Source: Myxococcales bacterium (lineage in GTDB: Bacteria; Myxococcota_A; Polyangia; Fen-1088). Taken from it: DNA of 64,000 nucleotides. The stretch covers positions 416,057-480,056 of the forward strand of contig JAGTJU010000004.1 of NCBI GenBank assembly GCA_022184915.1, written 5' to 3'. Positions 2,147 to 46,505 of this stretch are shown here, one piece after another. The notes beneath the pieces are model-generated. The model was not told the origin of the DNA. It saw only the letters and a list, made by a program, of their open reading frames with translations, and searched no databases. The stretch's first letter is position 1. Each line of letters starts with the position of its first letter. The translations under genes and the position numbers were made by a program.

Positions 2147-2673
2147 CGGCTCCTCCTGTCGGAAATTCGGCTTCTAGAAGAACGGCTCAAAAAAACTCGA
2201 GGCCCACGCCGTCCGGTCACTGCCCTTCGGCTTCGGGGGTGCCGGCAAGCGGCAACCAAACGAAGGCGGGGGCACCGGGGGGGGCTCGGCGAACGGCAAT
2301 CGAAATACGGCAATCGACGGGTCCAGCGCGCGTGGGTCTACGGAGTTGTGGGCTCGAAGGGCCTACGCGAACGGTGCGAAGGAAAAGCTAATCGCTAGGT
2401 AAGGACCGTAGAAGCACTTTGAATGCCATAGATTTTGCCGTCGTGTAAAGGCAAGAAACACGTGTCGACGTGGCGAAATGCCACACCCCGTGGCAAACGG
2501 TCTCGACCCGGGGGATGTAGTCCCCGGCTTGAGGGGGCGAGTCCTCAGCTCCAACAGCGCAGCAAGGCCTACATCGGTGCCTTGGTGCGCCACCTGCGCG
2601 GCCCGAGAGAGGGGCGGTGTGCGTGGCCTGCGGGTTGTGAAGAGGGCGCGCGGGCGGTACGTTCAGTGCGTTC

Positions 2674-3204
2674 ATGCGTTCCACTCGCCTCGTCGACATC
2701 GTCGTGTTCGTGGTGGTGGCGGTCGCCATCCTGTTGCCGAGACCCGATGTCACCGTCAAGCGCGGCCTGGATCTCACCGAGGCCCAGCGCACGGAGCTTG
2801 CCCTGCTGCAGGCGGAGCTGTCTCGCGCTCCGGGATCGGTCGAGCCCACCTTGCGCCTCTCCAGCTTGCTGCTGGCCGGGGGGCAACCGGAATGGGCCTT
2901 GGCGGCGCTGACCCCGGCGCAGGAGAAGGCACCTTCCGATCACAGGCTTTACGTCCGCGAGAGCCTCGCGTGGGCGGAGCGATTCGAAGGGCAAGCCGCC
3001 CATCGTGCGGCGCAGCGTGCCTTGGCCCTGTGCGAGAGTGGCTCGAGCGAGCCCTGCACCGAGCCCGATCGCGTGCGCCTGCAGATGATCGCCTCGACTC
3101 TCGAACGGGTGAAGGACCTCGATATGCGAGACAACCCGAATGCGGCGAAAGAGCGCATTTTGGAGGCCCTCCGCCCGGGGCACGTGCCTCGCCACACACC
3201 CTGA
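2674..3204 (+). CDS. hypothetical protein with N-terminal membrane anchor
   Basis: 176-aa ORF. N-terminal hydrophobic stretch IVVFVVVAVAILL, helical Ala/Leu-rich remainder. No family recognised. Confidence 0.4.
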   Translation: MRSTRLVDIVVFVVVAVAILLPRPDVTVKRGLDLTEAQRTELALLQAELSRAPGSVEPTLRLSSLLLAGGQPEWALAALTPAQEKAPSDHRLYVRESLAWAERFEGQAAHRAAQRALALCESGSSEPCTEPDRVRLQMIASTLERVKDLDMRDNPNAAKERILEALRPGHVPRHTP

Positions 3205-3381
3205 AAAAGCGAATCGCTCGGGATCGAAAAAATCTCGCGAAACCCGCTTGACAGGGGGCCTCAGGATCCGCCACATTCCCCGCCTACCGACGGGGCGGGC
3301 GGCGGAAAAACTCAATCTTATTCGTGGCGAACCCCTCACCCTCCTGGGGGACTCGCAACGTACCGGACTCGGCAACTTTAT

Positions 3382-3458
3382 GCGCCTGTAGCTCAATTGG
3401 ATAGAGCATCGGCCTTCGAAGCCGAGGGCTGGGGGTTCGATTCCCTCCGGGCGCACCA
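3382..3458 (+). tRNA. tRNA-Arg (anticodon TCG), CCA encoded
   Basis: Cloverleaf by eye. Acceptor GCGCCTG/CGGGCGC, D-arm GCTC-AATTGGATA-GAGC, anticodon stem TCGGC/GCCGA with loop CTTCGAA, T-arm GTTCGATTC, 3' ACCA. Overall resembles bacterial tRNA-Arg. Confidence 0.75.
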
Positions 3459-3495
3459 CACGGACGAAGCTTAACGATCGCAAAACTGAAGATTC

Positions 3496-3568
3496 GGGCG
3501 CGTAGCTCAACTGGTAGAGCAGCGGACTCTTAATCCGTTGGTTCGGGGTTCGATTCCCTGCGCGCCCA
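3496..3568 (+). tRNA. tRNA-Lys (anticodon CTT)
   Basis: Acceptor GGGCGCG/CGCGCCC, D-arm TAGCTCAACTGGTAGAGC, anticodon loop CTCTTAA, T-loop GGTTCGATTCC. CCA not encoded. Confidence 0.8.
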
Positions 3569-3570
3569 CT
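3525..3570 (+). repeat. attL: 46-bp direct repeat, the 3' part of tRNA-Lys
   Basis: GACTCTTAATCCGTTGGTTCGGGGTTCGATTCCCTGCGCGCCCACT is repeated exactly at 9475..9520. Confidence 0.85.
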
Positions 3571-3577
3571 CTCGCAA

Positions 3578-4852
3578 CTACCCGGAATTCTTGGACAATT
3601 CACCCTGACGCAGCGTTTTCGCGGGGTCCGATTCACTCGAAGGTGTGTCGCTTCTGTGTCGCTTGTGCACGGTGCCGGCATCTTCGACGGACGCCAAGTG
3701 AGCGCGCTCGAGCCCCAGGGTCATCCGTCGATTCGCCTCGGTCACCAGGTGCTCTGTGGCCAGGTGGGCGTAGACCGAAGCGGTTAGGTTGGCGCTGGAG
3801 TGGCCCAAGGTCTTCTGAAGGTCCAGGAGGCTTCCGCCAGCCATCACCCACAACGACGCGAACCCATGCCGAAGGTCGTGGACCGTCATCCGCTGAAGCC
3901 CCAGGGCTTCGCAGGCTCGTTCCAGGAGCGTGTTCAGGTGCCAGGCGTCGCGTGGCAAGGGCTTGCCGGTGTCCGGGTGAGGGAACACCAGATCGCCGGG
4001 CTTGGTCTTGCGGCTGGTGGCCAGGTGCTCTTCGAGGATGGTCGCCAGCTCGGACGTCATCGGGACAACGCGGCCCTTGCCAGACTTGGGCAGCGCGTCG
4101 AACGAGCGACGGATCGTCACCACCCTGCGGGATGGGTCGACGTCGCCCCACTGAAGCCCAGCGGCTTCGCCTCTGCGGGCCCCAGTGAGCATCAAGAACC
4201 CCGCGATGGGGTACCACCCGGGCGCCGTTTGCCTGAGGTAGGCCAGGAGCTTGGCCGCTTCGTGGGGGGTCTCAAGCGGCGGGCGCAGCTTGGCCGGGCG
4301 CTCGGCGAGCATGTACGAGCCGCGTCGGAAGCGAGCGATGGGGCTCGTTTGGAGATACCCAGCGGACACCGCGAAGTTCAGGACGCTTCGCAAGAGCGCC
4401 AACACCCTGTTGACCGTCGGGGCGGCGCGACCCTTCGAGAGCCACTCGCGGAAGTCCACGATGCGCCCGTGGGTGAGCTCGTTCACGGCCAGGCGCTCGC
4501 CGAAGTGCTGGACCACCAGCCCCCAGCGCTGAACGTTGTCCTCGTGAGAGCGCAGCTTGGGCTTCGAGTGTGTGCGTAACCACTCGCGGCCGACATCGGC
4601 CAGGGTCGTTTCGCCGGCCCGGTGGGCATCGAGCAGGCCAGACTCAGCCGCAACGCGGACCTTGGCCAAGAACGCCTGGGCTTCGGTCTTCGTCCTGAAC
4701 CCGCGCCGCCCGCGGCGGCGTCCGCCCTCGACCCAGCGAACCGTAAAGCTGGGCGCAGTGGGCGTGCCGGTCGAAACGACCGAGCCAAAGTCTCGTTTCG
4801 AAGCCCTGCGCTTTCGCGGCGCGCGGCGTGGCGTGGTATTGTCGTCGGGCAT
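3578..4852 (-). CDS. int: tyrosine-type site-specific integrase
   Basis: C-terminal catalytic domain with TGARRGE, HDLRH, GH and terminal Tyr (YAHL) signature. Start set at the internal ATG (MPDDNTT) rather than the ORF-track start at 5098, because the upstream part overlaps the att-proximal palindrome. Confidence 0.85.
   Translation of the reverse strand: MPDDNTTPRRAPRKRRASKRDFGSVVSTGTPTAPSFTVRWVEGGRRRGRRGFRTKTEAQAFLAKVRVAAESGLLDAHRAGETTLADVGREWLRTHSKPKLRSHEDNVQRWGLVVQHFGERLAVNELTHGRIVDFREWLSKGRAAPTVNRVLALLRSVLNFAVSAGYLQTSPIARFRRGSYMLAERPAKLRPPLETPHEAAKLLAYLRQTAPGWYPIAGFLMLTGARRGEAAGLQWGDVDPSRRVVTIRRSFDALPKSGKGRVVPMTSELATILEEHLATSRKTKPGDLVFPHPDTGKPLPRDAWHLNTLLERACEALGLQRMTVHDLRHGFASLWVMAGGSLLDLQKTLGHSSANLTASVYAHLATEHLVTEANRRMTLGLERAHLASVEDAGTVHKRHRSDTPSSESDPAKTLRQGELSKNSG
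3644..3664 (+). repeat. two direct TGTGTCGCTT repeats (putative integrase arm-type sites, left end)
   Basis: TGTGTCGCTTcTGTGTCGCTT just inside attL. The same 10-mer occurs three times near attR. Confidence 0.5.
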
Positions 4853-4980
4853 TGGTCGTTCGGTGGGTCGCCGCCCCGGCACGCGTAAAGCTTCGATCCC
4901 TCCGCGCGTGCCGGGGCATCTCTTTCGCCCATCGTGAACGAAGCCCGAACCGCTGTCACGTTCGAGGCGCTTTGACGCGG

Positions 4981-5027
4981 TCAGTAATATTCGGACATCA
5001 TGTCCGGAAATTACCGGGTGCGTCAAT
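4981..5027 (+). promoter_or_regulatory. ~47-bp conserved element containing the near-palindrome CGGACATcATGTCCG, upstream of int
   Basis: TCAGTAATATTCGGACATCATGTCCGGAAATTACCGGGTGCGTCAA. A second copy with 5 mismatches is at 9260..9306. Confidence 0.5.
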
Positions 5028-5250
5028 TGAGGCGAGCTTGGCCGGCCAACGCTTCGACCAAATCGTGGTAAGCCGCGGTGAAGCGTGCTTCGTGGCAATC
5101 GACGCCAGTCACCAGGGCGTGGCCCCCGAGCTCAAGCCATGCGTTCAGCGTGTCGTCCGAAAGGCCAGCGAAGAAGCGCGCGGTGCCCTCGTGCCGGTGC
5201 TCGGCGAAGAGCCCCAGGAACAACACAGCCCGGCCGTGGTCGAAGCTCAC
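5023..5250 (-). CDS. hypothetical small protein (island)
   Basis: 75-aa ORF. Its start overlaps the stop of the upstream gene by 4 nt. Confidence 0.3.
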   Translation of the reverse strand: MSFDHGRAVLFLGLFAEHRHEGTARFFAGLSDDTLNAWLELGGHALVTGVDCHEARFTAAYHDLVEALAGQARLN

Positions 5251-5693
5251 GGCTCCCCCTCGGTGCCGCCGGGCAGCGCTGGCACTTCGGCAACGTCGAT
5301 GGCTTCGTCGGGCTCGCCCCGTCGCTGGCGGGCAAGGGCCAGGAGCTCGGTCAGGCGTGAAGTGAGGCGTTCGGTGGTCTTGTTTTGCAAGGAATCGAGC
5401 AACCTGTTTGCTTGCGTCGTGTCCAGCTCGGCATCGAGGGCCAACGGCTGAATCGGCTTCCCGACGGCGTAGAACAGGATCAGTTCCAGGGCCTTCAGTT
5501 GCTCACGTGGCGAGGGCGGGGCGCCATGGCCAGCCGGTAAGCCGTTTGCGAACCTCACGAGCGCGTCGATAGCATCGGGCGCCGCCCCTCGAAGCGAGTT
5601 TGCAAGTTCATCGCGCCAACGCGGCCGGCCGGCCGGGTTTGGGCTCGGCATGCCCTTCGTCCAGCGGTTGGTCGGCTTCGGAGCGTCAGGCAT
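5247..5693 (-). CDS. hypothetical phage-like protein with NPAGRP motif (DUF5681-like / small-terminase-like)
   Basis: 148-aa ORF with N-terminal KGMPSPNPAGRPRW. This motif is common in phage/satellite proteins of unknown function. Confidence 0.4.
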   Translation of the reverse strand: MPDAPKPTNRWTKGMPSPNPAGRPRWRDELANSLRGAAPDAIDALVRFANGLPAGHGAPPSPREQLKALELILFYAVGKPIQPLALDAELDTTQANRLLDSLQNKTTERLTSRLTELLALARQRRGEPDEAIDVAEVPALPGGTEGEP

Positions 5694-5699
5694 GGCCGC

Positions 5700-6023
5700 T
5701 CACATGAAAAGGCTTGCTTGCTTCGGCGGCTCGGGAGGTGCCACGAGCTTCGGGGTCCGTCGTTCGCGGCGCTTGGCCGGCGGGGCCACGAACGGCACAG
5801 CGGTGGCCCATGTCTGCCGGTCGTGTCCAAGGCGTTTTTGAAGCTCCAAGACTCGAAGCAACGTCCGCACCTCGCTGGGAAACCCCTGCAAAATGCCGCG
5901 AACGGTGGCCGGGCTCGTTCGCAGACGAAGCGCGGTCTTCGCGAGGCCGCACACCGCCACGTGCTCGGCGAGAAACGCCCGAAGCTTGCTCGTCGGCGCA
6001 ACCCCCCTTGAACGTAACTGCAT
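5700..6023 (-). CDS. hypothetical protein (island)
   Basis: 107-aa ORF in the same orientation as the island genes. No family recognised. Confidence 0.3.
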   Translation of the reverse strand: MQLRSRGVAPTSKLRAFLAEHVAVCGLAKTALRLRTSPATVRGILQGFPSEVRTLLRVLELQKRLGHDRQTWATAVPFVAPPAKRRERRTPKLVAPPEPPKQASLFM

Positions 6024-6029
6024 GGCAAA

Positions 6030-6647
6030 TCACGATGCCACCTCGCAGGCCGAGGCGAGCTTTTGAACCCCATCAGCGAGCGCATCGAGCGCCACTTGCG
6101 GCGTGAGGCGGCCAGCCAAGGCATCGCGAATCGTGACTTGCGAAACGCCGCTTGCGGTCGCCAGCTGGGCAGGCGTCCACTTTCGAGCGGCTTCGATAAG
6201 CTCGGGCGGCGCAAACCCGGATGCGCGTGCAACGCTCTGGCTTGGCCCAGGAAGCGCGTCCTCGGTCGCTGGCTGCCCAGGGTCGTCCAAAGGTGCTTTC
6301 GAAGCGCGTGGCGCAGCGGCGGCCCGTTTGGCGAGGTGTTTGGTTCGTGCCGCTCGCCACTTGCGGCGTTGGGCTTCGAGCTCGGTGGGCGTCAGCTCAT
6401 GGGCCAACTTGCGACGTCGCTTAGGCGGCTTCGGCTCGGGCTCGGCCGACGATGCGAGCGGCTCGATGGGGTGCGACTTGATAATTACAAACGCTTTCCG
6501 GCGAGGCCTTCGAGGCTTCGTTGGTGCGGGCGCTTCGGCCACCGGCGGGGCCACGACGGGCACCGAAGCGCTCGCAGAGGCCACTGAGGCTTCGAGCCTC
6601 TCAAGCAAATCGGCGAGGGCGCGAAGTTCATTGGGTCGAAGCATCAC
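6030..6647 (-). CDS. hypothetical protein with C-terminal helix-turn-helix
   Basis: 205-aa ORF. Pro/Lys/Arg-rich linker, then AQLATASGVSQVTIRDALAGR HTH-like segment. Confidence 0.4.
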   Translation of the reverse strand: MMLRPNELRALADLLERLEASVASASASVPVVAPPVAEAPAPTKPRRPRRKAFVIIKSHPIEPLASSAEPEPKPPKRRRKLAHELTPTELEAQRRKWRAARTKHLAKRAAAAPRASKAPLDDPGQPATEDALPGPSQSVARASGFAPPELIEAARKWTPAQLATASGVSQVTIRDALAGRLTPQVALDALADGVQKLASACEVAS

Positions 6648-6949
6648 AACCCCCGAAAGAGCCTGTCGAAGTTCGCGGAAAGTGTCTCGGCGGCGGCATC
6701 GACGCGCCGCTGATGCTCGGCACGCTGGCGGTTGGCTTCGCGCAATTCGGCTTCGCGCTGGGCAGCCTCATCGGCAAGACGTTCAGCCCGGGGCCGTGGG
6801 CGCCGTGGCGACGCGGGCGCTTCACCGGGCGGCGGCCCACCGGCGAAAGCATGCGAAACGCAGGCCTCGAAGTGCCGTCGGCGCGCCAGCTCGTAGCGTT
6901 CCAAAGCGCGGGCGTATTCGACTTCGACGTGGTCAGTTTCGTTCGGCAT
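6644..6949 (-). CDS. hypothetical coiled-coil protein (island)
   Basis: ORF 6644..6997. The internal ATG (MPNETDHVEVEY) is preferred as start. Confidence 0.3.
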   Translation of the reverse strand: MPNETDHVEVEYARALERYELARRRHFEACVSHAFAGGPPPGEAPASPRRPRPRAERLADEAAQREAELREANRQRAEHQRRVDAAAETLSANFDRLFRGL

Positions 6950-7108
6950 CGGTCGGTCCTTTCGTGGTGGCCAAAGTTCACAAGTAACAAGCGACAAGCG
7001 AACTGTTTCGGGCGTGCTCTGAATCCAGTTTCAACGCGCGCCGAAGCAACGCCCAAAGGCGGCGAAGCCTGGAACCGCGGCGGCGTCTCACGAACGTGGC
7101 GACGGCGT

Positions 7109-7891
7109 TCATCGCCCACCTCGCGAAAACCCGTCTGCCGCCGCCTGACGCTTGCGGTCGAACTCGGGCTGGAACGACGCTGCGTTGGCGGCGATGCGCC
7201 GGGCAAGCTCGCGGGTCGCCCGTTCCTCGGCATCGTCCGGGGCTGCCGGTGCCGGTGTCGTCGGGGGCTGTGCCTTGGCCCGCGCCGCGAACCACTCGGC
7301 CTCGACCCGCTCGTCGAACGCCGCGGCGCGAGCGGCCTCGTCGTCCTGCGGCGCCGGCGTCACTGCGGCGTGTATGCCGGTGTCGGTGTCCCGGTGCGTC
7401 GGGGTAGTACTATGACCAGTAGCGTTACTCTGAATAGTACCGTATTCGATGATATCTGAGGCGGACCCATATCGGTCCCCATGTGGGGGGCCAGATGGGT
7501 ACCCACTTGGGGACCCAGATGGGTACCCATCGCCTATGTCCTTGTTTTCATTGGACTTGGGCGTCCAACGGCGCGCTGCGCCCGACCGTCCGCCGTCACG
7601 CTGTGCTCGATACTTCGCCTCAACCGCCGTATCGTAGCCGAGCACGGCGAGATCATCGCCCGACCAGGCCGCGAGGCCCGAGGAGACGAGGCGATCGGCT
7701 TGCGAGCGGTTGATTCCCGGCCCCCGTAGCCAGGCCCGTGGCGCCCACCGGCGAGCCCCGGACAGTACCCCGCCGGTTTCCTGTTCGCCGCAGTGCACAG
7801 CGAGCCGAAGCCACGTGGCGACGTCTGCGTCGCTGGCGGCAGCCATGGCAGGCGAGCGATACCAGCTGTGATCGATTGGGGTGAATCTCAT
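7109..7891 (-). CDS. hypothetical protein with GYPSG tandem repeat (island)
   Basis: Starts at MRFTPIDHSW, with the ATG overlapping the xis stop (ATGA). Contains GYPSGSPSGYPSGPP, encoded by a 22-bp tandem DNA repeat around 7489..7535. The longer ORF-track call (7109..8116) overlaps xis in another frame. Confidence 0.45.
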   Translation of the reverse strand: MRFTPIDHSWYRSPAMAAASDADVATWLRLAVHCGEQETGGVLSGARRWAPRAWLRGPGINRSQADRLVSSGLAAWSGDDLAVLGYDTAVEAKYRAQRDGGRSGAARRWTPKSNENKDIGDGYPSGSPSGYPSGPPHGDRYGSASDIIEYGTIQSNATGHSTTPTHRDTDTGIHAAVTPAPQDDEAARAAAFDERVEAEWFAARAKAQPPTTPAPAAPDDAEERATRELARRIAANAASFQPEFDRKRQAAADGFSRGGR

Positions 7892-8103
7892 CGGGCGCCC
7901 CCGGTCTCGGGCTGGGCGCCGGCAGTGCTGCGAGACTCGACCCATCGGCTCAGCACGGTCTCGGCAACCAACACGCGCCTTCCGATGCGCACGGCATCGA
8001 TTTCGCCCCGTCGAACGGCCTGATACCACCAGGACCTCGACACGTTCGTGAGGCGCGCCACTTCGTCGAGCGGCAGCAACCGGGGCAGTGTGGCGGGTGT
8101 CAT
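7888..8103 (-). CDS. xis: excisionase / AlpA-family HTH DNA-binding protein
   Basis: 71 aa. LLPLDEVARLTNVSRSWWYQAVRRGEIDAVRIGRRVLV matches the Xis/AlpA (HTH_17) fold signature. Confidence 0.75.
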   Translation of the reverse strand: MTPATLPRLLPLDEVARLTNVSRSWWYQAVRRGEIDAVRIGRRVLVAETVLSRWVESRSTAGAQPETGGAR

Positions 8104-8402
8104 CGCGGACCTCCATGCGGCGCCAACTCGTCGAGGCGCTGCCCGGCTACCGCGACGATGTTTCGGACGCAGCCGAGACCCGCCATGAGGCGCGCGATTG
8201 TCGACCGCGACACGCTCAGGAGCTCGGCGGCGCGTGGTTCACCCTCGCGCTGGACCAGGCCGCGCAACACCTCGCGGTGCCTCGGCGAGAGCGGGACCCC
8301 CTTGGCGGCGAATGGCCCGCCGGCTCGGGAGATTCGTTCGTTTGGGTTTGACATGCCCAAACGATGCCGTGGCCCGCGCGCCCCGTGGCCGAGTTCGGAC
8401 AA
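8100..8402 (-). CDS. putative HTH regulator (island)
   Basis: 100-aa ORF. Its stop overlaps the xis start (ATGA). LSPRHREVLRGL...SRSTIARLMA resembles a LuxR/sigma-region-4-like HTH. The true start may be the internal MSNPNERI. Confidence 0.4.
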   Translation of the reverse strand: MSELGHGARGPRHRLGMSNPNERISRAGGPFAAKGVPLSPRHREVLRGLVQREGEPRAAELLSVSRSTIARLMAGLGCVRNIVAVAGQRLDELAPHGGPR

Positions 8403-8437
8403 TTCGGATTTGTCCGAACTTTTGGTACCAATGCGGT

Positions 8438-9097
8438 TTACCTCTTGACTTGTTTCGCTTCGCCGTCAAACAGCCCCTTCGCCCGTCGCTGGCTCATGCC
8501 CATCGCCGCCAAGGCACGGCGAACGTATTCCTCGCCGTCGTAGGCGCTGGCGTCCCGGTCCCGCCACAAGAGCCGCTCGAAGGCGGACGCCACGGCCAAC
8601 GTGAACGCATGCCGCTCGGCGGGCTCATCGAGCACGGACACCTTGGTCCCATCGGCGGCAAGCTGGGCTCGCAGGCATGGGCAGCGGTCGAGCACTTCGC
8701 CCACGAAGGACGCAGCAAGCTCGTGCTCTGTGGCTGGCGAGCGCAACCGGGCCTCGAGGGCGTTCACCAGCGCGGCAAGCTCCACGGGCCGCTCGCTCGC
8801 TCTGCCAGCGCTTGGCGCCACCCGGGCCGCAACTTCGAGGCGCTTGAGCGTGGCGGCGTCGCCGTCGCGAAGTGCTTGCACGAGGCCCGCGAGCACCGAT
8901 GCCACTTGCCGGCTTTCGTGGCCCTCTGGGCGAAACTGCGCTTCGTGGTCGAAGCTCACCCACGCTTCGGCAAGCAGCCCCTTGGCGTCTTCGAGGGCTT
9001 CATCGCCGCCCCACAACGCAAGCGGCTTGCCGTCATCCTCGACTTCGCCAAGCTCGACCAACCCGGCCTTGAGCTCGGCTCGTGGGTCGTAGCCCAT
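8438..9097 (-). CDS. hypothetical protein (island)
   Basis: 219-aa ORF, first gene inside attR. Acidic, helical. No family recognised. Confidence 0.4.
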   Translation of the reverse strand: MGYDPRAELKAGLVELGEVEDDGKPLALWGGDEALEDAKGLLAEAWVSFDHEAQFRPEGHESRQVASVLAGLVQALRDGDAATLKRLEVAARVAPSAGRASERPVELAALVNALEARLRSPATEHELAASFVGEVLDRCPCLRAQLAADGTKVSVLDEPAERHAFTLAVASAFERLLWRDRDASAYDGEEYVRRALAAMGMSQRRAKGLFDGEAKQVKR

Positions 9098-9259
9098 CGG
9101 TGTGCACTCTCTTGCACCCCGGGAAAAGAATCACCGGGTGGCCCGCCGGAGTGCAGACGGCAGGCCCCGTGCGGCTCATGACTTCCGCGCGGTCCCGGTG
9201 CCGCTCAAGCTATTCGCCTTCGTTGCGATCAACAAGCTGCCCTGTGGGATTCACGAGCT

Positions 9260-9306
9260 TCAGTAATAAACGGACATCATGTCCGGAAATTACCGACCGC
9301 GTCAAA
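9260..9306 (+). promoter_or_regulatory. second copy of the 47-bp element with CGGACATcATGTCCG palindrome
   Basis: TCAGTAATAAACGGACATCATGTCCGGAAATTACCGACCGCGTCAA. Compare 4981..5027. Confidence 0.5.
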
Positions 9307-9349
9307 GTGGGCTCACCGGGAGGTGCTCGGTGGGCCTTCGGGAGGCCCG

Positions 9350-9385
9350 TGTGTCGCTTGGGGTGTGTCGCTTGTGTGTCGCTTC
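9350..9385 (+). repeat. three direct TGTGTCGCTT repeats (putative arm-type sites, right end)
   Basis: TGTGTCGCTTggggTGTGTCGCTTgTGTGTCGCTT, same orientation as the left-end copies. Confidence 0.5.
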
Positions 9386-9474
9386 GGAGTGATAATCGGT
9401 GCGATTGATGCGATGTATGCACGAAAAAGTGCAATGAAAACGCACCCATGCAATTGGTGATAACCGGGGGAAAA

Positions 9475-9520
9475 GACTCTTAATCCGTTGGTTCGGGGTT
9501 CGATTCCCTGCGCGCCCACT
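9475..9520 (+). repeat. attR: 46-bp duplicate of the tRNA-Lys 3' end
   Basis: Exact copy of 3525..3570. Flanking sequence differs on both sides. Confidence 0.85.
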
Positions 9521-9811
9521 TTCTGTCGGACCGGTTCCCGGTTACTCCCTTCGACGAAGCGGGGCCTACACGAAACGGCCGCCCCGCACGCGGAGGGGCT
9601 AAGGGCCTGTCGTCGGGCGAAGCCGAGCGGCACGCGTCTTGAAGACGCTTTCACTATGAAGCCGCGGCTGGAGGATGAGGGGGAGGGCCAAGTCAGAGGG
9701 GCCGCTCGCGTGACACAGGTGAAGGGGCGCCCGAGGCCGGCACAGCGGGCAGGCCGGGCCGCCCCGGGGCGCGCGCCTGATCCCCCGCGGCAGTCGGCGG
9801 CGCGGCGCTAC

Positions 9812-10918
9812 ATGCAGCGGCCGCTGCGCTGGGCCGTGGTGGGTATGGGGCACTTCGCCCAGACCCACGTTCTGCCCGCGTTTCGCGCCCGGGGTGCCGG
9901 TGAGTTGCGCTTCATCGTGACCGAAGATCCCACGAAGGCGCGCGCCCTCAGCCGGGCGTACGACACCGAGGCGATCGACTACGACCATCTCGAAAGCATG
10001 CTCAGGTCCGACGAGGTCGACGTGGTCTACGTGACCGTGCCGAACCACCGCCACCGTGAGCTCACGGTGCGAGCGCTGCGGGCGGGCAAACACGTGCTGT
10101 GCGAAAAGCCCATGGCCGTGTCCGTGAGGGAGTGTCGGGAGATGGCGCAGGCCGCGGAGGAAGCCGGTGTGAAGTTGATGATCGGCTACCGCCTGCACTT
10201 CGAGAAGGCCAATCTGGCCGCCGTCGACCTGATACGAGCCGGTCGCCTGGGTGAGCCGCGCTTTTTCAGCTCGGCGTTCTCGTTTCAGGTGGAGCCTGAC
10301 AACGTGCGGACCCTGCCCACACACGAGGGAGGTGGTGTGCTCTACGATGTGGGCGTCTACTGCATCAACGCGGCTCGCTCGCTCTTTGGCGAGGAGCCTG
10401 TGTGCGCGACCGCGGTGTCCGCCAGCCGCCCGGGGGACGGCCGCTTCGAGGACAATCCCGAGCAAGTCTCGGCCGTGCTCGAGTTTCCCGAGGGCAAGCT
10501 CGCGAGCTTCGTCGTGTCTTTCGGCGCCGCCAGCGTGAACTTCTATACGGTGGCAGGCACCGAGGGGTCTCTGTCTCTCGAGCCCGCGTATAGCCTGGCC
10601 TCGCCCATGCACCTGGTGATGACCACGCGCAAGGGACGCAACGTCAACCGCCGCATCGACAAACACGATCAGGTCGCGGCCGAGCTCGTGTACTTCAACG
10701 AGTGCATTCGTGATGACGTGGAGCCCGAGCCCTCGGCAGAGGAGGGCATCGCGGACGTGGCCATCGTGGAAGCGATCTTGCGTTCGGCTCGCGAGGGGCG
10801 CCCGATCCCCCTCGGCCTGTCGCCTCGCAAGCACCCCACGGGGGCGCAGGCGCGGCAAAGGCGTGCCCCTGCCAAAACCCCGAAGGTGGTGAGCGCCTCC
10901 GGGCCAGGTTCATCGTAG
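9812..10918 (+). CDS. Gfo/Idh/MocA-family NAD(P)-dependent oxidoreductase
   Basis: N-terminal Rossmann RWAVVGMGHFAQTHVLPAF, EKP motif (HVLCEKPMA), C-terminal alpha/beta domain. Start chosen at MQRPLRW because the ORF-track start lies inside attR. Confidence 0.75.
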   Translation: MQRPLRWAVVGMGHFAQTHVLPAFRARGAGELRFIVTEDPTKARALSRAYDTEAIDYDHLESMLRSDEVDVVYVTVPNHRHRELTVRALRAGKHVLCEKPMAVSVRECREMAQAAEEAGVKLMIGYRLHFEKANLAAVDLIRAGRLGEPRFFSSAFSFQVEPDNVRTLPTHEGGGVLYDVGVYCINAARSLFGEEPVCATAVSASRPGDGRFEDNPEQVSAVLEFPEGKLASFVVSFGAASVNFYTVAGTEGSLSLEPAYSLASPMHLVMTTRKGRNVNRRIDKHDQVAAELVYFNECIRDDVEPEPSAEEGIADVAIVEAILRSAREGRPIPLGLSPRKHPTGAQARQRRAPAKTPKVVSASGPGSS

Positions 10919-10936: not shown

Positions 10937-12154
10937 GTGTCTCGGTGTCACGTGGCGGTGGGCGTCCTTGCCAGGGCCACTCTGGCGGGGCTGATCTGCC
11001 TTGCGGGCGTTCCGGCCGCGGCGAAGACGACCGAATTTGGGGCGGTGCCGCTCGTGGGCGGTGACAGCGACAATGGGTTCGGCTTTGGGGGCATCGCCAG
11101 TGTGGCGGCGCCCGACCCGCAGCGCCCGCCTTATCGCTGGAGCCTGGAGGCGGGCGGATTCATCACCTTCGACACACGGGATGACCGCCCGGCGAGCCCC
11201 TACCAGGATCTCTACCTGCGCTGGGTGGCGCCCCGGCTCGGGGGCGGCAGGCTGTGGGCCGAGGCCCGGGGCTCGTGGACCCGCGAAAACGCGCTCGACT
11301 ACTACGGCATCGGCAACGCCAGCGTGCGGCCCGCCGACAGCGATTCCGATCGAGATGCCTATGCGCGCCGCCATCCGGAGGTGTATCTGAGGGTGCGGCT
11401 GCGGCTTTGGGGCCCGTGGGCGCTGGCACTTGGCCAAACCTTCGCCCACAACGGGCTGGCCATTCCTTCGCGCAGCTTCGTCGCCCGGGACCTGAGGGCA
11501 CCGCCCGAAGGTTTTGCGGCCGCCTTCCGCACGGTGGGGGACCACGGGGTGGCGCGCAGCGAAGGCGGCGTGGTCTTCGACACGCGCGACACCGAACTTT
11601 CGCCCACGAAGGGCCAGTTTCACGTGCTCAGGGCACGGGTCAGCCCCCGCCTGGGAGAGGCGCTGCCTTACGGCTACCAGCAACTCAATCTGACCCTGCG
11701 CGGGTACCGTGCGCTGGGCGCGCCCACGCGGGTGTTGGCCGGCCGCCTGGTGGGCGATGTGTTGTTCGGGGATGCGCCGTTTTACGAGCTGACCCGCTTC
11801 GACGATACCAACGCCGTGGGAGGGCCCAAGGGCGTGCGCGGGGTGCCCGCGCAGCGGTTCTACGGCAAGGTGAAGCTGTTCTCGAACCTCGAGCTGCGTG
11901 CGCTGCTGCTGCGTTTTCGCCTCGCGGGCAAGGCGTTTTCGCTCGGCAGTGTGACGTTCTTCGATGTGGGGCGGGTGTGGTCGGATCTTTCGCCCAGCCG
12001 CGCGCTGGACGGCACGGGGCTGGGGCTTCACTACGGTCTCGGCGCGGGTCTGCGCCTCACGCAGGGAAGCACCTTTGTCGTGCGGGCCGATCTCGCCTGG
12101 TCGCCCGACGCGCGCCCGCTGGGGGCCTACGTGAGTGCAGGGCAGGTGTTTTGA
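10937..12154 (+). CDS. Omp85/BamA-family (bacterial surface antigen) outer-membrane beta-barrel protein
   Basis: Signal peptide. Alternating beta-strand pattern. C-terminal GLGLHYGLGAGLRLTQGSTFVVRADLAW...F typical of the D15/Omp85 barrel. Confidence 0.65.
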   Translation: MSRCHVAVGVLARATLAGLICLAGVPAAAKTTEFGAVPLVGGDSDNGFGFGGIASVAAPDPQRPPYRWSLEAGGFITFDTRDDRPASPYQDLYLRWVAPRLGGGRLWAEARGSWTRENALDYYGIGNASVRPADSDSDRDAYARRHPEVYLRVRLRLWGPWALALGQTFAHNGLAIPSRSFVARDLRAPPEGFAAAFRTVGDHGVARSEGGVVFDTRDTELSPTKGQFHVLRARVSPRLGEALPYGYQQLNLTLRGYRALGAPTRVLAGRLVGDVLFGDAPFYELTRFDDTNAVGGPKGVRGVPAQRFYGKVKLFSNLELRALLLRFRLAGKAFSLGSVTFFDVGRVWSDLSPSRALDGTGLGLHYGLGAGLRLTQGSTFVVRADLAWSPDARPLGAYVSAGQVF

Positions 12155-12164
12155 GGCGGACGGG

Positions 12165-13091
12165 TCAAAGCCACAGGTCCGTCAGCGTGGCCACCAAAAA
12201 GGCGACCGACACGTACCCGTTCAGGTTGAAAAACGCCATGTCGAGCCGGGACAGATCCGAGGGGCGCAGGATGCTGTGCTCCCACACGAGGATGCCCGCG
12301 ATCACGGCGAGGCCTGCGAAGTAGATGGCCTGCAGGCCGCCCGAAAGCCCCGTGAACACGAGCGCAACGAGCGTCACCCCGTGCAGCCCGCCCGAGATCC
12401 ACAGCGCGCCTTTCACGCCGAAGCGCACCGGGATCGAGCGCAGCTGGGCGCTTTCATCGAAGCCCCGATCGGCCAGGGCGTAAAGGATGTCGAAGCCTCC
12501 GATCCAGGTGGTGACCGCCAGCATCAGCCACAGGGCGGGCGCGGCCAGGCCCCCCGTGACGGCGATCCAGGCGCCTGCGGGTCCGGCCGCGATCGCAAAG
12601 CCCAGCACGAGGTGGCAAAGCCAGGTGAAGCGCTTGGTGTAGGAGTAGCCCAGCACCAAGCCCAGGGCCACCGGGCTTAGCGCCAGGCACAGGGGTCCCA
12701 GGTAGGCCGACACGGCGATGAAGATCGCGCTCGAGAGCAGCACGAGGGCCACGGCCGTACGGAGAGGAACGAGGCCGCGGGGGATCTCACGGTTCGCCGT
12801 ACGTGGGTTGCGGGCGTCGAAGTGCCGATCGACGATGCGGTTCCAGCCCATAGCGGCGGTGCGGGCGGCGGCCATCGCCACCACGATCGCACCCAATCGA
12901 GGCCAGGTGAGCGCGTGGGTGCGCGAGGCCATCGCCGCCGCGGCCAAGGCAAAGGGCAGGGCGAAGACGGTGTGGCTGAACTTGATCATGCGCCCGAAGG
13001 TCCTCACCTGGGCGAGGACGCCGCGAGGCGGGGTGACAGGATCGGGCAGGGAGAGGCTAGGGGGGGCGGAGGTCGGCTTCATGTCATCCAT
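12165..13091 (-). CDS. UbiA-family prenyltransferase (likely 1,4-dihydroxy-6-naphthoate polyprenyltransferase of the futalosine pathway)
   Basis: 308 aa from MDDMKPTS (alternative start M at 13082, which forms an ATGA overlap with the upstream gene). Multi-TM, with NRIVDRHFDARNPRTANREIP and YALADRGFD Asp-rich motifs of the UbiA superfamily. Sits in the mqn cluster. Confidence 0.75.
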   Translation of the reverse strand: MDDMKPTSAPPSLSLPDPVTPPRGVLAQVRTFGRMIKFSHTVFALPFALAAAAMASRTHALTWPRLGAIVVAMAAARTAAMGWNRIVDRHFDARNPRTANREIPRGLVPLRTAVALVLLSSAIFIAVSAYLGPLCLALSPVALGLVLGYSYTKRFTWLCHLVLGFAIAAGPAGAWIAVTGGLAAPALWLMLAVTTWIGGFDILYALADRGFDESAQLRSIPVRFGVKGALWISGGLHGVTLVALVFTGLSGGLQAIYFAGLAVIAGILVWEHSILRPSDLSRLDMAFFNLNGYVSVAFLVATLTDLWL

Positions 13092-14320
13092 TCCACAGAG
13101 GTCGGCGCGCCCTGGACGAGGGTGCGGAGCAAAGCTTCGGCGTGGGGCGCTTCGACGGGCACCGCGAGCACCCCCGGGCGTTGGCCAGGCGTAAGCGAGC
13201 CCAACCAGGGCCTTTCGAGGGCGATGGCGCCCCCGTGGGTGGCGGCTTCGAGCCACAGGTGGGGCGGCAGCGCGGGAAAGGCACCGGCCAGGGCCTTCAT
13301 TTCGTCCCAGAGGGAGAGCGAGGCCACCGACGCCAGGCTGTCGGTGCCGAGCGCCAGGGTCAGCCCGGCATCGACCATCGCGGGCACGGGTGGTGCGCGG
13401 CCGCTGATGTGTTGGTTCGAGCGCAGGCAGAGCACCACGGGCGCGGCGGCGGCGCGCGCCCTGACGATCTCCGGCTCGCCCGCCAGACACATGTGCACGA
13501 GCAAGGGCGCCGGGGGGCCCGCGAAGGCGCCGAGCCGCTCGAGGTAGGGGCCCGGGCCCATGCCGGGGGTGCGGCTGCCGGGCGGCACACCCAGGCGCGC
13601 GAGCACGGGCGCCCAGGCCCCGACGCCCGTCTCGAGCAGCGCGAGCTCGTCGGTGTCCTCGGCGAGGTGGATCGTGGTGCGTTGCCCGGCCGCCTGCGCG
13701 GCCGCGAACAGCCGCGCCAGCAGCGCGGGGCCACCCGAGTAGGGCGCGTGGGGGGCCTGCACGTAGCGGAACCGCAGCGGCCAGTGGCCCGCCCGCACGA
13801 GCGCTTCTTGCTCGGCCCGCAAGGCCTCGAGGCCCGCGCCGCTTCCGTCGTCGCGGGAGCCCAGGATCTCGTGAAAAAAACTGCCTTCCAGGGGGACCTG
13901 CCCGAGCGCCTCGACGCATCCAAGACCGTTGCCCACGTCCCCAAGCGCGATCGTTCCCGCCCGATGCGCAGACGCAGCGGCCCTGTGAGCCGCGGCCAGG
14001 CGCGCGGCGTCGGCCACGTCGCCGGCCGCCCGCTGCAGGCGCCCCACCCAGGGCACGAGGCCCTCGCCCCCGGGCACGCCGCCTGCGAGCGCCGAAAGTT
14101 CGAGGTGGGTGTGCGCGTTCACCAGGGCGGGCAAGAGGGTGCCGTGCACGTGCCGCTGCCGCGCGGGCCCTGCCTGTTTTGCGAGGACCTCGGCGGGCCC
14201 CACGGCCACGATGCTTCCCTCGGCGTCCAGCCACACGGCGCCCTCACGCAAGGGCGGAGCCGTGATGGGCACCACCCAGGAGGCGCTCACCAGTTGGCCC
14301 GTGCGGCCCTCGTGCGCCAT
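13079..14320 (-). CDS. amidohydrolase-family protein (candidate aminodeoxyfutalosine deaminase)
   Basis: 413 aa. HxH metal motif (VNAHTHLELS) plus later His/Asp ligands of the amidohydrolase fold. Position in the mqn cluster. Confidence 0.6.
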   Translation of the reverse strand: MAHEGRTGQLVSASWVVPITAPPLREGAVWLDAEGSIVAVGPAEVLAKQAGPARQRHVHGTLLPALVNAHTHLELSALAGGVPGGEGLVPWVGRLQRAAGDVADAARLAAAHRAAASAHRAGTIALGDVGNGLGCVEALGQVPLEGSFFHEILGSRDDGSGAGLEALRAEQEALVRAGHWPLRFRYVQAPHAPYSGGPALLARLFAAAQAAGQRTTIHLAEDTDELALLETGVGAWAPVLARLGVPPGSRTPGMGPGPYLERLGAFAGPPAPLLVHMCLAGEPEIVRARAAAAPVVLCLRSNQHISGRAPPVPAMVDAGLTLALGTDSLASVASLSLWDEMKALAGAFPALPPHLWLEAATHGGAIALERPWLGSLTPGQRPGVLAVPVEAPHAEALLRTLVQGAPTSVEWMT

Positions 14321-14332
14321 CTTTTCCGCTCC

Positions 14333-16303: not shown

Positions 16304-17451
16304 GGCACCACCTCCAGCGCGCGGCGGCTCACGTTGCGGCGGAAGGGCTTTTGCGGGACCAGGGCGTCGCCTTCGGCGATCACGTTGTAGAGCGTGTCGC
16401 GCTCGACAGGGGTGCGCCCGGCGTTGACGATGAGGCGCACGATCTCGTCGGGGGCCAGGGTCTGCGGCGTCTCCGCACCGGCCATGTGATAGATCTTTTC
16501 CTCTTGCACGGTGCCATCGAGATCATCGGCACCGAACCAAAGCGCCGTTTGCGCCGTCTTCACCCCCAGCATCACCCAGTACGCCTTGAGGTGCGGGATG
16601 TTGTCCAGAAGCAACCGGGCCACCGCGTACGTGCGCAGGTCTTCGATGCCCGTGGGCGCAGGCAGCTTCATGAGGGCGTTGTTGTCGGGGTGGAAGGCCA
16701 GGGGGATGAAGGTCTGAAAGCCGCCTGTTTCGTCTTGCAGGGCGCGCAGCGCGAGCATGTGGTCCACACGTTCTTCCAGGGTCTCGATGTGCCCGTAGAG
16801 CATCGTGCAGTTCGATCGCATGCCCATCTGGTGGGCCGTGCGGTGTACGGCCAGCCATTCTTCGGCGTTGCACTTGTCGTCGCACACCTTCTTGCGCACC
16901 CGCGGGGCAAAGATCTCGGCGCCGCCGCCCGGCAGGGAATCGAGACCGGCGGCCCGCAGCTGCTCCAGCACCTCCTTTACGGAGAGTCCGTAGCGCTGGT
17001 GGTAGTAGTGCACTTCCACCGCCGTAAAGGCCTTGAGATGGATGTCCGGCTTGATGCGCTTGAGACCCGCGAGGAGGTCCGTGTAGTAGGAAAACGGCAG
17101 GCCCGGGTGAAGGCCATTGACGATATGGATCTCCGTCACGGGCTCGCCCACGTCCACGCGCCTTTGCAGACGGCCGAGGGCTTCTTCGAGCGAAAGGGTC
17201 TGCGCCTGGGGGCTGCCCTCCTCGAGCCGCGCGAACGAGCAGAACCGGCAGCTGGCCACACAGACGTTCGTGGCGTTGATGTGGAAGTTCCGGTTGAAGT
17301 ACGTGCGCGCGCCGTGCATCCGCTCCCGGACCTCATTGGCCAGGGCGCCGAGCTCCATCAGGTTGGCGTGATCGAAGAGCGCGACACCGTCCTCGAAGGA
17401 CAGAGGCTCGCCGTCTTTGACTTTGTCGCGAATGCGGGAAAACGTGCTCAT
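16300..17451 (-). CDS. MqnC/MqnE-type radical-SAM enzyme (menaquinone via futalosine)
   Basis: 383 aa. NATNVCVASCRFCSF Cys triad. Paralogous to the C-terminal half of 14333..16303. ATGA overlap with the upstream gene. Confidence 0.7.
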   Translation of the reverse strand: MSTFSRIRDKVKDGEPLSFEDGVALFDHANLMELGALANEVRERMHGARTYFNRNFHINATNVCVASCRFCSFARLEEGSPQAQTLSLEEALGRLQRRVDVGEPVTEIHIVNGLHPGLPFSYYTDLLAGLKRIKPDIHLKAFTAVEVHYYHQRYGLSVKEVLEQLRAAGLDSLPGGGAEIFAPRVRKKVCDDKCNAEEWLAVHRTAHQMGMRSNCTMLYGHIETLEERVDHMLALRALQDETGGFQTFIPLAFHPDNNALMKLPAPTGIEDLRTYAVARLLLDNIPHLKAYWVMLGVKTAQTALWFGADDLDGTVQEEKIYHMAGAETPQTLAPDEIVRLIVNAGRTPVERDTLYNVIAEGDALVPQKPFRRNVSRRALEVVP

Positions 17452-46295: not shown

Positions 46296-46505
46296 CGCGA
46301 CAAAGCTCGCAACGCAAGAACGAGGGTGGTTTCGTCGGTTCCCCCATCGACGACCACAGTGAGACCACTGGGGCGGAACGTGTCAACGATTTAGAGACAG
46401 AAGGTTTTGGAAATATGTGTAGCGCCGCTGCAGCACGGCTCTGGCAATCTGCCCACAACCGCACAGCGTCGCTGGTCATGTGAGGACCTACGACCGCTGT
46501 GCACA

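Follow-up and report, generated by a model that had tools for sequence, protein, structure and literature searches.

A 5.95-kb site-specific integrative element with a probable replication initiator in a tRNA-Lys gene of an uncultured myxobacterium

The 64,000-nt stretch of DNA analysed here (the window) comes from the metagenome-assembled genome of an uncultured myxobacterium (Myxococcales) and carries, in a tRNA-Lys gene, a site-specific integrative element of 5,950 bp. The features of the locus, in window coordinates, are as follows.

3496-3569, plus strand: tRNA-Lys(CTT), intact, the integration target on the attL side (ARAGORN; Rfam RF00005, 73.3 bits)
3525-3570: attL core, a 46-bp identity block that starts in the anticodon stem and reaches the 3' end of the tRNA
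3578-4852, minus strand: tyrosine integrase, 424 aa (PF00589, 2.5e-24; phrog_1, 3.7e-71; GC3 about 0.85)
3643-3664, plus strand: two tandem arm-type sites, (G/C)TGTGTCGCTT, of the P' arm
4970-5026, minus strand: promoter-palindrome module, copy 1, upstream of int; promoter-like TTGACG-18-CATGAT overlapped by a palindrome of approximately 31 bp
5023-5250, minus strand: 75-aa ORF (MCG5054628.1; GC3 0.82), with a 4-nt overlap between its start and the stop of the gene upstream
5247-5693, minus strand: 148-aa ORF with an N-terminal NPAGRP motif
5700-6023, minus strand: 107-aa ORF judged HTH-like only by eye; its GC3 phase fits a coding frame
6030-6647, minus strand: 204/205-aa ORF with a weak C-terminal XRE-type HTH, a candidate regulator (HTH_31, 1e-3; HTH_3, 2e-3; both below cutoff)
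6644-6997, minus strand: coiled-coil-like ORF of 101-117 aa, starting at 6997 (TTG) or 6949 (ATG)
6950-7108: AT-richer internal gap, GC 0.55
7109-7891, minus strand: probable replication initiator (O-like or replisome-organiser-like), 260 aa
7400-7530: candidate origin inside the rep gene, with three 24-bp repeats (7463-7530) and an AT-richer patch (7400-7460)
7888-8103, minus strand: excisionase or recombination directionality factor (HTH_17, MerR/AlpA-like), 71 aa (HTH_17, 1.4e-11; TIGR01764, 40.9 bits against a cutoff of 28.8)
8100-8402, minus strand: small HTH protein, 100 aa (GC3 0.78-0.86 in this frame)
8438-9097, minus strand: 219-aa ORF, first gene of the operon
9260-9307, minus strand: promoter-palindrome module, copy 2, upstream of the early operon
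9349-9384, plus strand: three arm-type sites GTGTGTCGCTT of the P arm, then an AT-rich stretch (9385-9474)
9475-9520: attR core, a displaced copy of the 3' half of tRNA-Lys

The first-pass annotation had counted nine co-oriented genes; all ORFs do lie on the minus strand, with coding backed by third-position GC, while their number is 10, possibly 11, and includes the 75-aa ORF that is also present in the NCBI annotation. They form a compact operon with ATGA/GTGA start-stop overlaps and coding-like GC3 throughout. The same annotation had described a small integrative element with integrase, excisionase and arm-type repeats, bracketed by a perfect 46-bp duplication of the tRNA-Lys 3' end and with its integrase abutting the intact tRNA, and each of these points was borne out. 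The direct repeat (3525-3570 and 9475-9520) is identical at 46/46 positions, spans the tRNA from position 30 in the anticodon stem to the 3' end and does not extend leftward (counted over 49 nt, 48/49 are identical), and the integrase stop codon lies 8 nt from the tRNA end.

An unoccupied site, which had been proposed as a check in relatives, is present in a 99%-identical strain from another metagenome (L011), where the tRNA is joined directly to the flank beginning at 9521: its sequence corresponds to window positions 2335-3573 fused to 9475-10860, with identities of 99.6% and 98.0% and a single att copy. Because a near-identical strain has an unoccupied site, the element is a recent and precise insertion. 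Integration took place in the 3' half of tRNA-Lys(CTT); the tRNA was restored in the process and the 46-bp duplicate stayed behind. With a tRNA and its displaced 3' repeat, a tyrosine integrase adjoining the tRNA and an unoccupied site, the locus has all three hallmarks of a tDNA-integrated genomic island of the Islander type. Its proteins are all singletons in 90% clusters, found in one assembly only, whereas a host flanking protein occurs on 8-9 contigs from several samples, in the others of which the element is missing. A 5,964-bp Logan contig is no evidence of a circular form: it consists of the element and, from each repeat, k-1 = 30 nt, and reflects a break in the de Bruijn graph.

The small size and the many ORFs without homologues, which might be degraded genes, could suggest an immobile, fixed remnant of a prophage or island. 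However, the two att copies match perfectly, none of int, xis and rep is disrupted, the genes are tightly packed and coding-like in GC3, and the element is absent both from the L011 site and from other samples carrying the host flank. The empty site by itself already largely refutes a fixed remnant, and we regard this explanation as extremely unlikely.

The integration machinery appears to be that of an arm-binding tyrosine recombinase. The integrase has a weak N-terminal match to an arm-binding domain (Arm-DNA-bind_4, 0.0024), and its C-terminal tail overlaps the P' arm sites. The arm-type repeats are genuine: of the seven matches to GTGTGTCGCTT (at most one mismatch) in the 64 kb, where 1.27 were expected, five flank the two att cores. 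A sixth copy of the arm-site core, TGTCGCTT, lies inverted at 6989-6996 inside the AT-richer gap. The excisionase gene overlaps each of its two neighbours by ATGA and its product is 39% identical to the L020 xis. The ORF at 8100-8402 shares 46% identity over 57 aa with a 55-aa gene upstream of that xis, and a small HTH gene directly upstream of xis is conserved in related elements.

There are 73 integrase homologues at E<=1e-20, and the closest (about 50, at 50-58% identity) are Myxococcota/Polyangia metagenome proteins encoded in elements of 6-9 kb at other tRNAs. These elements have in common the order small HTH gene, xis, replication gene and int at tRNA genes, and one is bounded by a 58-bp tRNA-Leu repeat with copies 8.5 kb apart. 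The clade switches tRNA targets, which among the relatives here are Lys, Phe and Leu.

The first-pass statement that the element has no replication genes proved wrong, since ORF 7109-7891 is one of a large family of proteins resembling phage replication initiators or replisome organisers and contains iteron-like repeats. It consists of an N-terminal winged helix (residues 1-110; AF2 pLDDT about 97), a disordered linker and a C-terminal helical hairpin. The N-terminal domain is common to 1,234 homologues and is homologous to annotated initiators, a fragment of it matching phrog_3926 (1.4e-5) and phrog_2447 (7.5e-4), two profiles with the annotation "replication initiation protein"; members of the family match replisome-organiser, DnaD-like and O-like PHROGs, and its BFVD matches include "replisome organizer" and DUF1376 proteins. 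The family is otherwise found in phages, and in two Akkermansia phages and one IMG/VR contig the gene lies directly upstream of a DnaB helicase. This helicase association holds for the phage homologues, while in related elements the equivalent position is taken by a DnaB, Prim-Pol or AAA_25 gene; the element itself encodes no helicase or primase.

Phage lambda O and the replisome-organiser (DnaD-like, DUF1376) initiators likewise combine an N-terminal winged-helix DNA-binding domain with a flexible linker and a C-terminal interaction domain; the genes of these initiators also adjoin a DnaB-type helicase gene in phages and have an iteron array and AT-rich patch in their linker-coding part. The likeness of ORF 7109-7891 to these initiators runs through PHROG profiles and fold only: it has 0 Pfam families, Phage_rep_O, Phage_rep_org_N and DnaD included, and no replication-related Pfam family was found among 77 members of its family. 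We consider it probable that this ORF is a phage O-like or replisome-organiser-like initiator. The three repeats within the gene, each centred around ATGGGTACCCAT (TRF score 85, period 24, 2.8 copies), together with the neighbouring patch of GC 0.54 (0.70-0.77 around it), likely form the origin, as judged from sequence, and short repeats occur at the same intragenic position in rep homologues. However, they encode a repetitive peptide (GYPSG) and may thus represent low-complexity coding sequence instead of iterons.

Islands that are small, carry int and xis and sit at tRNA genes often prove to be integrative mobilizable elements (IMEs), in some of which Rep-like initiators also serve as relaxases, so the element could be an IME moved by a conjugative element, with a relaxase or oriT among its ORFs without assignment. 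Nevertheless, neither a relaxase family nor MobC, coupling-protein or FtsK/Tra domains were detected in the element ORFs in Pfam and NCBIfam, the initiator is of the winged-helix O/DnaD-like type rather than HUH or Rep_trans, and no more than 10 ICEs/IMEs turned up in a survey covering 3,229 myxobacterial genomes. We thus think mobilization of this kind very unlikely. AICEs depend on a Tra protein that is FtsK/SpoIIIE-like and generally have a rolling-circle Rep; the element differs from them in having domains of neither kind (no FtsK_SpoIIIE match in its ORFs) and in its host, which is not an actinomycete. pSAM2-type AICEs do resemble it in being small, high-GC elements at a tRNA 3' end with a long att identity block, and in excision followed by circle replication, which for our element is proposed (PMC2440964).

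For six of the ten or eleven ORFs neither homologues nor a family could be detected, and so a transfer or packaging function may be hidden among them. The ORF at 5023-5250 gave no match in family searches, that at 5700-6023 none in Pfam, PHROGs or NCBIfam, and the operon's first gene (8438-9097) none in Pfam, PHROGs, NCBIfam, PADLOC, phages or the PDB. Three HTH-like proteins had been claimed; one (6030-6647) has weak Pfam matches, HTH_31 and HTH_3 at about 1e-3, and another (8100-8402) a conserved homologue, while the third (5700-6023) is such by eye only. The 148-aa protein found only itself among 5.8 billion proteins, with no homologue in phages or the PDB, and its single-sequence AlphaFold model (pLDDT 51) was too poor for a structure search. 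The NPAGRP motif, earlier called typical of phages, owes that description solely to a sub-threshold match to DUF5681 (E 0.008, 17 bits against a cutoff of 27.5, 22 residues).

In the element ORFs, Pfam, PHROGs and NCBIfam detected no terminase, capsid, relaxase or FtsK-like gene, in agreement with the earlier remark that capsid genes are absent. The labels of phage-like cargo and of a satellite or PICI-like island, however, found no positive evidence: TerS, capsid, Ppi/Cpm and primase families were not detected, and the DUF5681 match is sub-threshold. PICIs are about 10-20 kb long and usually possess a Pri-Rep primase-helicase as well as a master repressor that is transcribed divergently. Neither was detected here, all genes being co-oriented; as regards a pri-rep module with its own ori, the element has a probable O-like initiator and iteron-like repeats, and no primase or helicase. 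PICIs also carry a terS, capsid or packaging-redirection module, for which (terS, ppi/cpm, rpp, capsid) we found no match in Pfam, PHROGs or NCBIfam, and the markers of P4-like satellites (alpha primase-helicase, sid, psu, delta) gave no Pfam or PHROG match. The element is like the PICI/SaPI type in its site-specific integrase, xis/alpA gene, candidate replication module with a putative ori of its own and predicted repressor-operator control of the operon.

A precedent is offered by the PICMIs (phage-inducible chromosomal minimalist islands) of Vibrionaceae, whose defining traits are a primase with DUF3987/DUF5906 and an insertion site next to fis (PMC10803314). Like the element, they comprise about 6 kb and a handful of genes, including a tyrosine integrase, an AlpA/HTH_17-type excision factor and their own replication gene, and lack capsid-remodelling and packaging genes; the element differs in its O-like initiator, lack of a primase, tRNA-Lys site and Myxococcota host. 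Of the PICMI markers, the integrase (PF00589) and AlpA (PF05930 or PF12728) are present through matches to PF00589 and PF12728, whereas no ORF matches DUF3987 (PF13148) or DUF5906 (PF19263) at E<=0.1, and instead of adjoining fis (PF02954) the element sits in tRNA-Lys and has no HTH_8 match. Among the relatives, L024, L025 and L032 carry a DUF3987/DUF5906-type primase, and several combine three of the four PICMI-defining markers (int, HTH_17 and a primase of the DUF3987 or Prim-Pol kind) with HTH_8, a Fis-type gene within the element.

A satellite-like logic is a plausible and reasonable hypothesis by analogy with PICMIs. A stronger proposal makes the element a phage satellite in the full sense, a minimalist island of the PICI/PICMI kind in which a helper myxophage would de-repress a shared operator, leading to excision, replication and packaging of concatemers in helper capsids, and in which an ORF such as the 148-aa protein might redirect packaging. 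The int-xis-rep logic, small size and co-oriented operon fit known satellites, a roughly 6-kb satellite without capsid or packaging genes exists among PICMIs, the rep family is otherwise from phages, and the relatives just described and the weak DUF5681 hint point the same way. However, the element ORFs yielded no gene for TerS, capsid, Cpm/Ppi, Sid/Psu or interference; phage records and IMG/VR contigs gave no match at the DNA or protein level except to rep; the arm and operator motifs gave no meaningful matches in viral contigs; there is no known helper phage, and no prophage stood out within the window; and the literature searched shows no link between Myxococcota and phage satellites. We regard this proposal as possible rather than probable.

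Tycheposons of Prochlorococcus offer a different comparison: they too have a tyrosine recombinase at the 3' part of a tRNA, an excisionase and a small replication module, lack transfer genes and belong to an integrase clade that switches tRNA targets (bioRxiv 10.1101/2020.12.28.424599). They probably differ in integrase clade, and they do differ in host, in replication genes that are primases or helicases and in usually carrying metabolic cargo or terS/MCP. For the cargo type, phage-free spread by way of vesicles has been proposed, and vesicles show an enrichment of those tycheposons that have the same two modules (bioRxiv 10.1101/2020.12.28.424599). The element, with its integration and replication modules, small regulators and no packaging genes, might similarly be an integrative plasmid or cargo-less selfish element spreading by vesicles, natural transformation or myxobacterial outer-membrane exchange and lysis, but it has no evident beneficial cargo that would favour its retention, and this account seems unlikely.

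We favour, at a probability of roughly 70%, an integrative element that excises and replicates itself and, because it has no recognisable transfer apparatus, is a helper-dependent hitcher. For such an element, the integrase would bridge the core (anticodon stem-loop region) and the five GTGTGTCGCTT arm sites, with the HTH_17 protein acting as directionality factor when the element excises. On the excised circle, the O-like initiator would bind the three 24-bp iterons within its own gene, open the adjacent AT-richer patch and recruit the host replicative helicase, so that the circle would be amplified. The duplicated 46-nt module, with its palindrome core CGGACAT-N-ATGTCCG and one copy each before the early operon and int, would put the early operon (the 219-aa and 100-aa ORFs, xis, rep and onwards) and int under one DNA-binding regulator. 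Transfer between cells would have to use outside machinery, capture by a helper myxophage being the likeliest route.

The element is thus a genomic hitch-hiker of an ordinary kind, and what is unusual is its host. In logic it resembles PICIs, PICMIs or tycheposons, and it probably belongs to none of these families. More doubtful is the proposition that, together with its integrase relatives, it constitutes the first phage satellite family in Myxococcota, comprising 6-9 kb tRNA-integrated elements of Polyangia/Myxococcales without packaging genes that are moved by myxophages. If that were true, the primase-helicase usual in the family would in this member have given way to an O-like initiator whose origin lies inside its gene.

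We read the 5.95-kb element in tRNA-Lys(CTT) as probably a self-excising, self-replicating, helper-dependent integrative element, and put the probability of this reading at roughly 0.7. At its left boundary, ARAGORN and Rfam agree on two tRNA genes:

3382-3458, plus strand, tRNA-Arg
3496-3569, plus strand, tRNA-Lys(CTT)

The end of the tRNA-Lys region is duplicated as a perfect 46-bp direct repeat (3525-3570 and 9475-9520), leaving 5,904 bp for the element proper (3571-9474), or 5,950 bp when counted between the starts of the two repeats. Because the repeat begins at tRNA position 30, it spans the anticodon stem-loop to the 3' end, as is usual for integrases that regenerate the tRNA and have their crossover, as is probable here, at or close to the anticodon loop. 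On the left the identity ends abruptly; on the right it extends to 48 of 49 positions, with a single C/T mismatch at position 47. The G+C content of the element (0.63-0.70 in 500-nt windows) lies inside the range of its surroundings.

The empty site was located by searching for exact copies of the left-flank protein (2674-3204; seen on 8-9 contigs), which gave nine contigs from several sequencing runs. One of these, L011 (2,576 bp; listed for two samples), matches 2335-3573 at 99.6% and then passes directly into 9475-10860 at 98.0%, carrying one att copy only, i.e., an unoccupied site. The first-pass annotation had proposed comparison with an empty site in a relative, and this contig with its single att copy supplies it. 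The element is a real, recent insertion. That it is instead a dead remnant, the only rival that is an alternative to our reading rather than a refinement of it, is the least probable of the rivals considered, a slim chance (our weights for all of them are rough estimates); its occupied and empty sites are both known and its att copies are still identical. Position 47, just beyond the core (3571 and 9521; 1237 in L011), reads C both in attL and in the empty site but T in attR, which would fit either a strain SNP or a crossover at the far right end of the identical stretch. A scan of genome contigs with the right-flank oxidoreductase returned no close relative (best 48%) and thereby no empty site.

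All element proteins form singleton clusters (90% identity) among ∼15 billion proteins, and their only sources were the NCBI MAG ("Myxococcales bacterium", locus tags KA712_168xx, 806-kb contig) and one run's Logan assembly. Logan contig L001 (5,964 bp) was considered as a circular form but is no evidence for a circle, since it consists of exactly the element with 30 nt (k-1) of each repeat, and the contigs flanking it end symmetrically. Two contigs from other samples, L009 and L010 (99.0-99.5% to the left flank), both stop at 3541, inside tRNA-Lys, while the left-flank contig of the element-bearing sample stops at 3554; the former could mean that another occupant, with a longer att repeat, sits there, or that those metagenomes contain a further tRNA-Lys gene. 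Downstream of the element, 10937-20550 holds an Omp85-family gene and a cluster resembling the futalosine route of menaquinone biosynthesis (VitK2_biosynth/radical-SAM, UbiA, UbiE-type methyltransferase and polyprenyl synthase), and is ordinary host context.

The machinery for integration, excision and replication comprises the following:

3578-4852, minus strand, tyrosine recombinase integrase of 424 aa, int (PF00589, 2.5e-24; phrog_1, 3.7e-71)
6950-7108, internal gap, AT-richer, that separates rep from the next gene and contains the 6989-6996 copy of TGTCGCTT
7109-7891, minus strand, putative replication initiator of 260 aa, rep (family profiles, fold and gene neighbours of homologues)
7888-8103, minus strand, excisionase-family protein, xis (HTH_17/TIGR01764, over curated cutoffs)

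Residues 53-77 of the integrase give a weak match to Arm-DNA-bind_4, and an arm-type 11-mer, GTGTGTCGCTT, has two copies in the 3' end of int, 73-94 nt inside attL, and three copies 90-125 nt inside attR, all with the same orientation. These copies make up five of the seven matches (at most one mismatch) in the 64-kb window, with 1.27 expected. Its core 8-mer, TGTCGCTT, has six copies in the window, every one within the element; the sixth (6989-6996, minus strand) is inverted, lies beside a partial second copy and may serve integrase binding or regulation within the element. What the first-pass annotation had observed (tRNA repeat, integrase, Xis and arm-type repeats) is thus borne out by repeats, domains and motif counts. 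Elsewhere in the window, an arm-like 11-mer with one mismatch at 46141 appears coincidental; it lies near a 93-nt 'tRNA-Asn' called by ARAGORN (46209-46301, minus strand), which has no Rfam tRNA match, sits inside long ORFs and is probably a false positive.

The rep protein has no match in Pfam or NCBIfam, and a word-indexed homologue search returned nothing, its list being saturated by low-complexity words. Exhaustive HMMER, used instead, found 1,234 representatives (50% clustering, E≤1e-3), all sharing the N-terminal ∼110 residues. The N-domain motif of this family, which has no Pfam entry, reads W-x-R-L...ENGG-x-I...GL-x-x-W-x-GDDL-x-V-x-GYD, and the family looks like an uncurated replication-initiator domain of phages or elements. 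Its members match PHROGs described as replication initiation protein, primosomal protein, DnaD-like helicase loader, replisome organizer and O-like, and the isolated N-domain of rep itself matches phrog_3926 (1.4e-5) and phrog_2447 (7.5e-4), both "replication initiation protein". In the AlphaFold model (77 homologues), residues 1-110 (pLDDT ∼97) form a winged helix and then a long helix, followed by a disordered linker and a helical hairpin; Foldseek against viral models retrieved "replisome organizer", DUF1376 and "replication initiator" proteins. Searches that included a scan with a 10-sequence N-domain alignment showed homologues in Akkermansia phages Chambord and Chantilly and on an IMG/VR contig of 87 kb, where they lie directly upstream of a DnaB-type helicase. 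The statement that the element has no replication genes was therefore wrong, as profiles, fold and DnaB neighbourhood all put rep in an initiator-like family. The public MAG annotation keeps only the last 84 aa of the 260 (MCG5054633.1), which is why the N-terminal domain is unannotated in the record; likewise, MCG5054629.1 is 103 of the 148 aa of o148 (5247-5693).

The linker-coding part of rep contains three 24-bp tandem repeats (7463-7530; TRF score 85), each centred on the palindrome ATGGGTACCCAT, and the adjoining patch at 7400-7460 has the lowest G+C of the gene (0.54 versus 0.70-0.77 around it). Phage homologues carry short tandem repeats at the equivalent intragenic position. In phage lambda, ori is located within gene O, and since the layout of repeats and AT-richer patch matches that arrangement, we regard the two together as a candidate origin inside rep, with the caveat that the repeats also code for a repetitive GYPSG peptide.

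Expression appears to be organized around two copies of a 46-nt module:

4981-5026, minus-strand promoter, module copy upstream of int
9260-9305, minus-strand promoter, module copy upstream of the first operon gene

Both contain a sigma-70-like TTGACG-18-CATGAT on the minus strand, with the -10 element at the centre of a ∼31-bp palindrome (core CGGACAT-N-ATGTCCG). Only three promoter-like sites occur in the region (0.3 expected), all within the two modules, and we infer that one regulator, a small HTH protein or a host or helper factor, acts on both promoters. In IMG/VR, the arm motif had no match and the operator two, on unrelated contigs (GC 48% and 59%) without protein similarity, consistent with chance. 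Start-stop overlaps (ATGA/GTGA) join o100 to xis to rep, o117 (6644-6997) to o204, and o148 to o75 (5023-5250), and third-position G+C favours the minus-strand frames, including 8100-8402. Two of the remaining ORFs can be described further:

6030-6647, o204, with a weak C-terminal XRE-type HTH
8100-8402, minus strand, o100, sharing 46% identity with a 55-aa gene that in the related element L020 also directly precedes xis

A plus-strand gene at 8115-8351, proposed by the Logan gene caller, was rejected because both GC3 and the L020 homologue back this minus-strand frame.

As a single-protein query against metagenome and viral contigs, the integrase had distant relatives or none. Approximately 50 homologues share 50-58% identity with it, nearly all from soil- or sediment-type metagenomes and some labelled Polyangia. 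Genomic contexts were retrieved for nine related integrases, and in seven the integrase adjoins the 3' end of a tRNA gene (Phe-GAA, Leu-CAA or Lys-TTT); one element, L025, has a 58-bp tRNA-Leu repeat at both ends, 8.5 kb apart. The five contexts that show enough of the element (two others show parts only) share a co-oriented order of unknown genes, small HTH, HTH_17 Xis, replication gene, small ORFs, often HTH_8, and int. The replication gene differs (Prim-Pol/DUF3987, DnaG-like plus DUF3987, DnaB, or AAA_25 helicase), and int is in some relatives 2-4 tandem recombinase genes. From the shared gene order and tRNA sites we conclude that the element is one of a group of small integrative replicons of Myxococcota that has not been described before; in this member an O-like initiator takes the primase/helicase slot. 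The closest integrase relatives are often part of tandem tyrosine-recombinase arrays (L020 6654-9033, L022 6734-11164, L026 6585-11158 and L016 4492-6682), which abut tRNA-Phe or tRNA-Lys(TTT) on Polyangia-type contigs and recall 'recombinase in trio' arrangements or stacked islands. Many relatives also carry a Fis-type HTH_8 gene (42-93 aa) directly upstream of int (L032 4981-5262; L024/L025 9677-9901; L018 1181-1309), where the window element has the 75-aa o75 instead.

As for transfer functions, the searches of its ORFs turned up no gene for a terminase, capsid, relaxase, FtsK-like protein, primase or helicase, and a DNA search with the whole element found nothing in phage and plasmid collections. 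Nothing significant was found for o219 (8438-9097), o148, o107 (5700-6023), o117 or o75 in Pfam, PHROGs, NCBIfam and PADLOC; o219 was likewise without a match in the phage collection, PDB and PADLOC. The NPAGRP motif of o148, taken by the first-pass annotation as phage-typical, led only to a sub-threshold DUF5681 match, and the DUF5681 literature was uninformative. A protein search with o148 found only itself, neither tblastn against phages nor the PDB gave a match, and its single-sequence AF2 model (pLDDT 51) was unusable and left out of the fold search. Of the earlier interpretation, integration thus stands and the absence of replication genes does not, while phage-like cargo or a satellite lifestyle is not proven.

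With PICMI, PICI and tycheposons the element shares an integrase, an AlpA/Xis-type factor, its own replication and the use of outside machinery for transfer, and a phage satellite is a possible, though doubtful, refinement of our reading. However, it lacks the DUF3987/DUF5906 primase and the fis target of PICMI (fis being their chromosomal target, outside the element; PMC10803314), shows no detectable packaging or capsid module as in PICI, and has none of the sid, psu, delta and alpha genes of P4-like satellites. Two further refinements are spread by vesicles or a transformation-type route, which we consider unlikely, and conjugative mobilisation, which has very little chance, the element having neither the FtsK-like Tra protein of an AICE nor the relaxase of an IME. 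It belongs to none of PICMI, PICI, P4-like satellites, AICE and IME, failing each on a defining feature.

Small tRNA-targeting islands with int, xis and rep are a well-known class of mobile element, so this one is unsurprising by itself. A survey of 3,229 myxobacterial genomes reported only 10 ICEs/IMEs, and our literature search found no paper connecting Myxococcota with phage satellites. In that phylum descriptions of integrative elements are very few and those of phage satellites are lacking; a cleanly bounded element there that seems to be active, and whose occupied and empty sites are both known, is of modest value. It also links a very large, unannotated protein family without a Pfam entry (>1,200 representatives) to replication initiation, and its att, int, xis, rep and ori could form a compact integration/shuttle toolkit for hard-to-engineer myxobacteria. 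If helper-phage dependence were demonstrated, minimalist satellites would reach beyond Vibrio.
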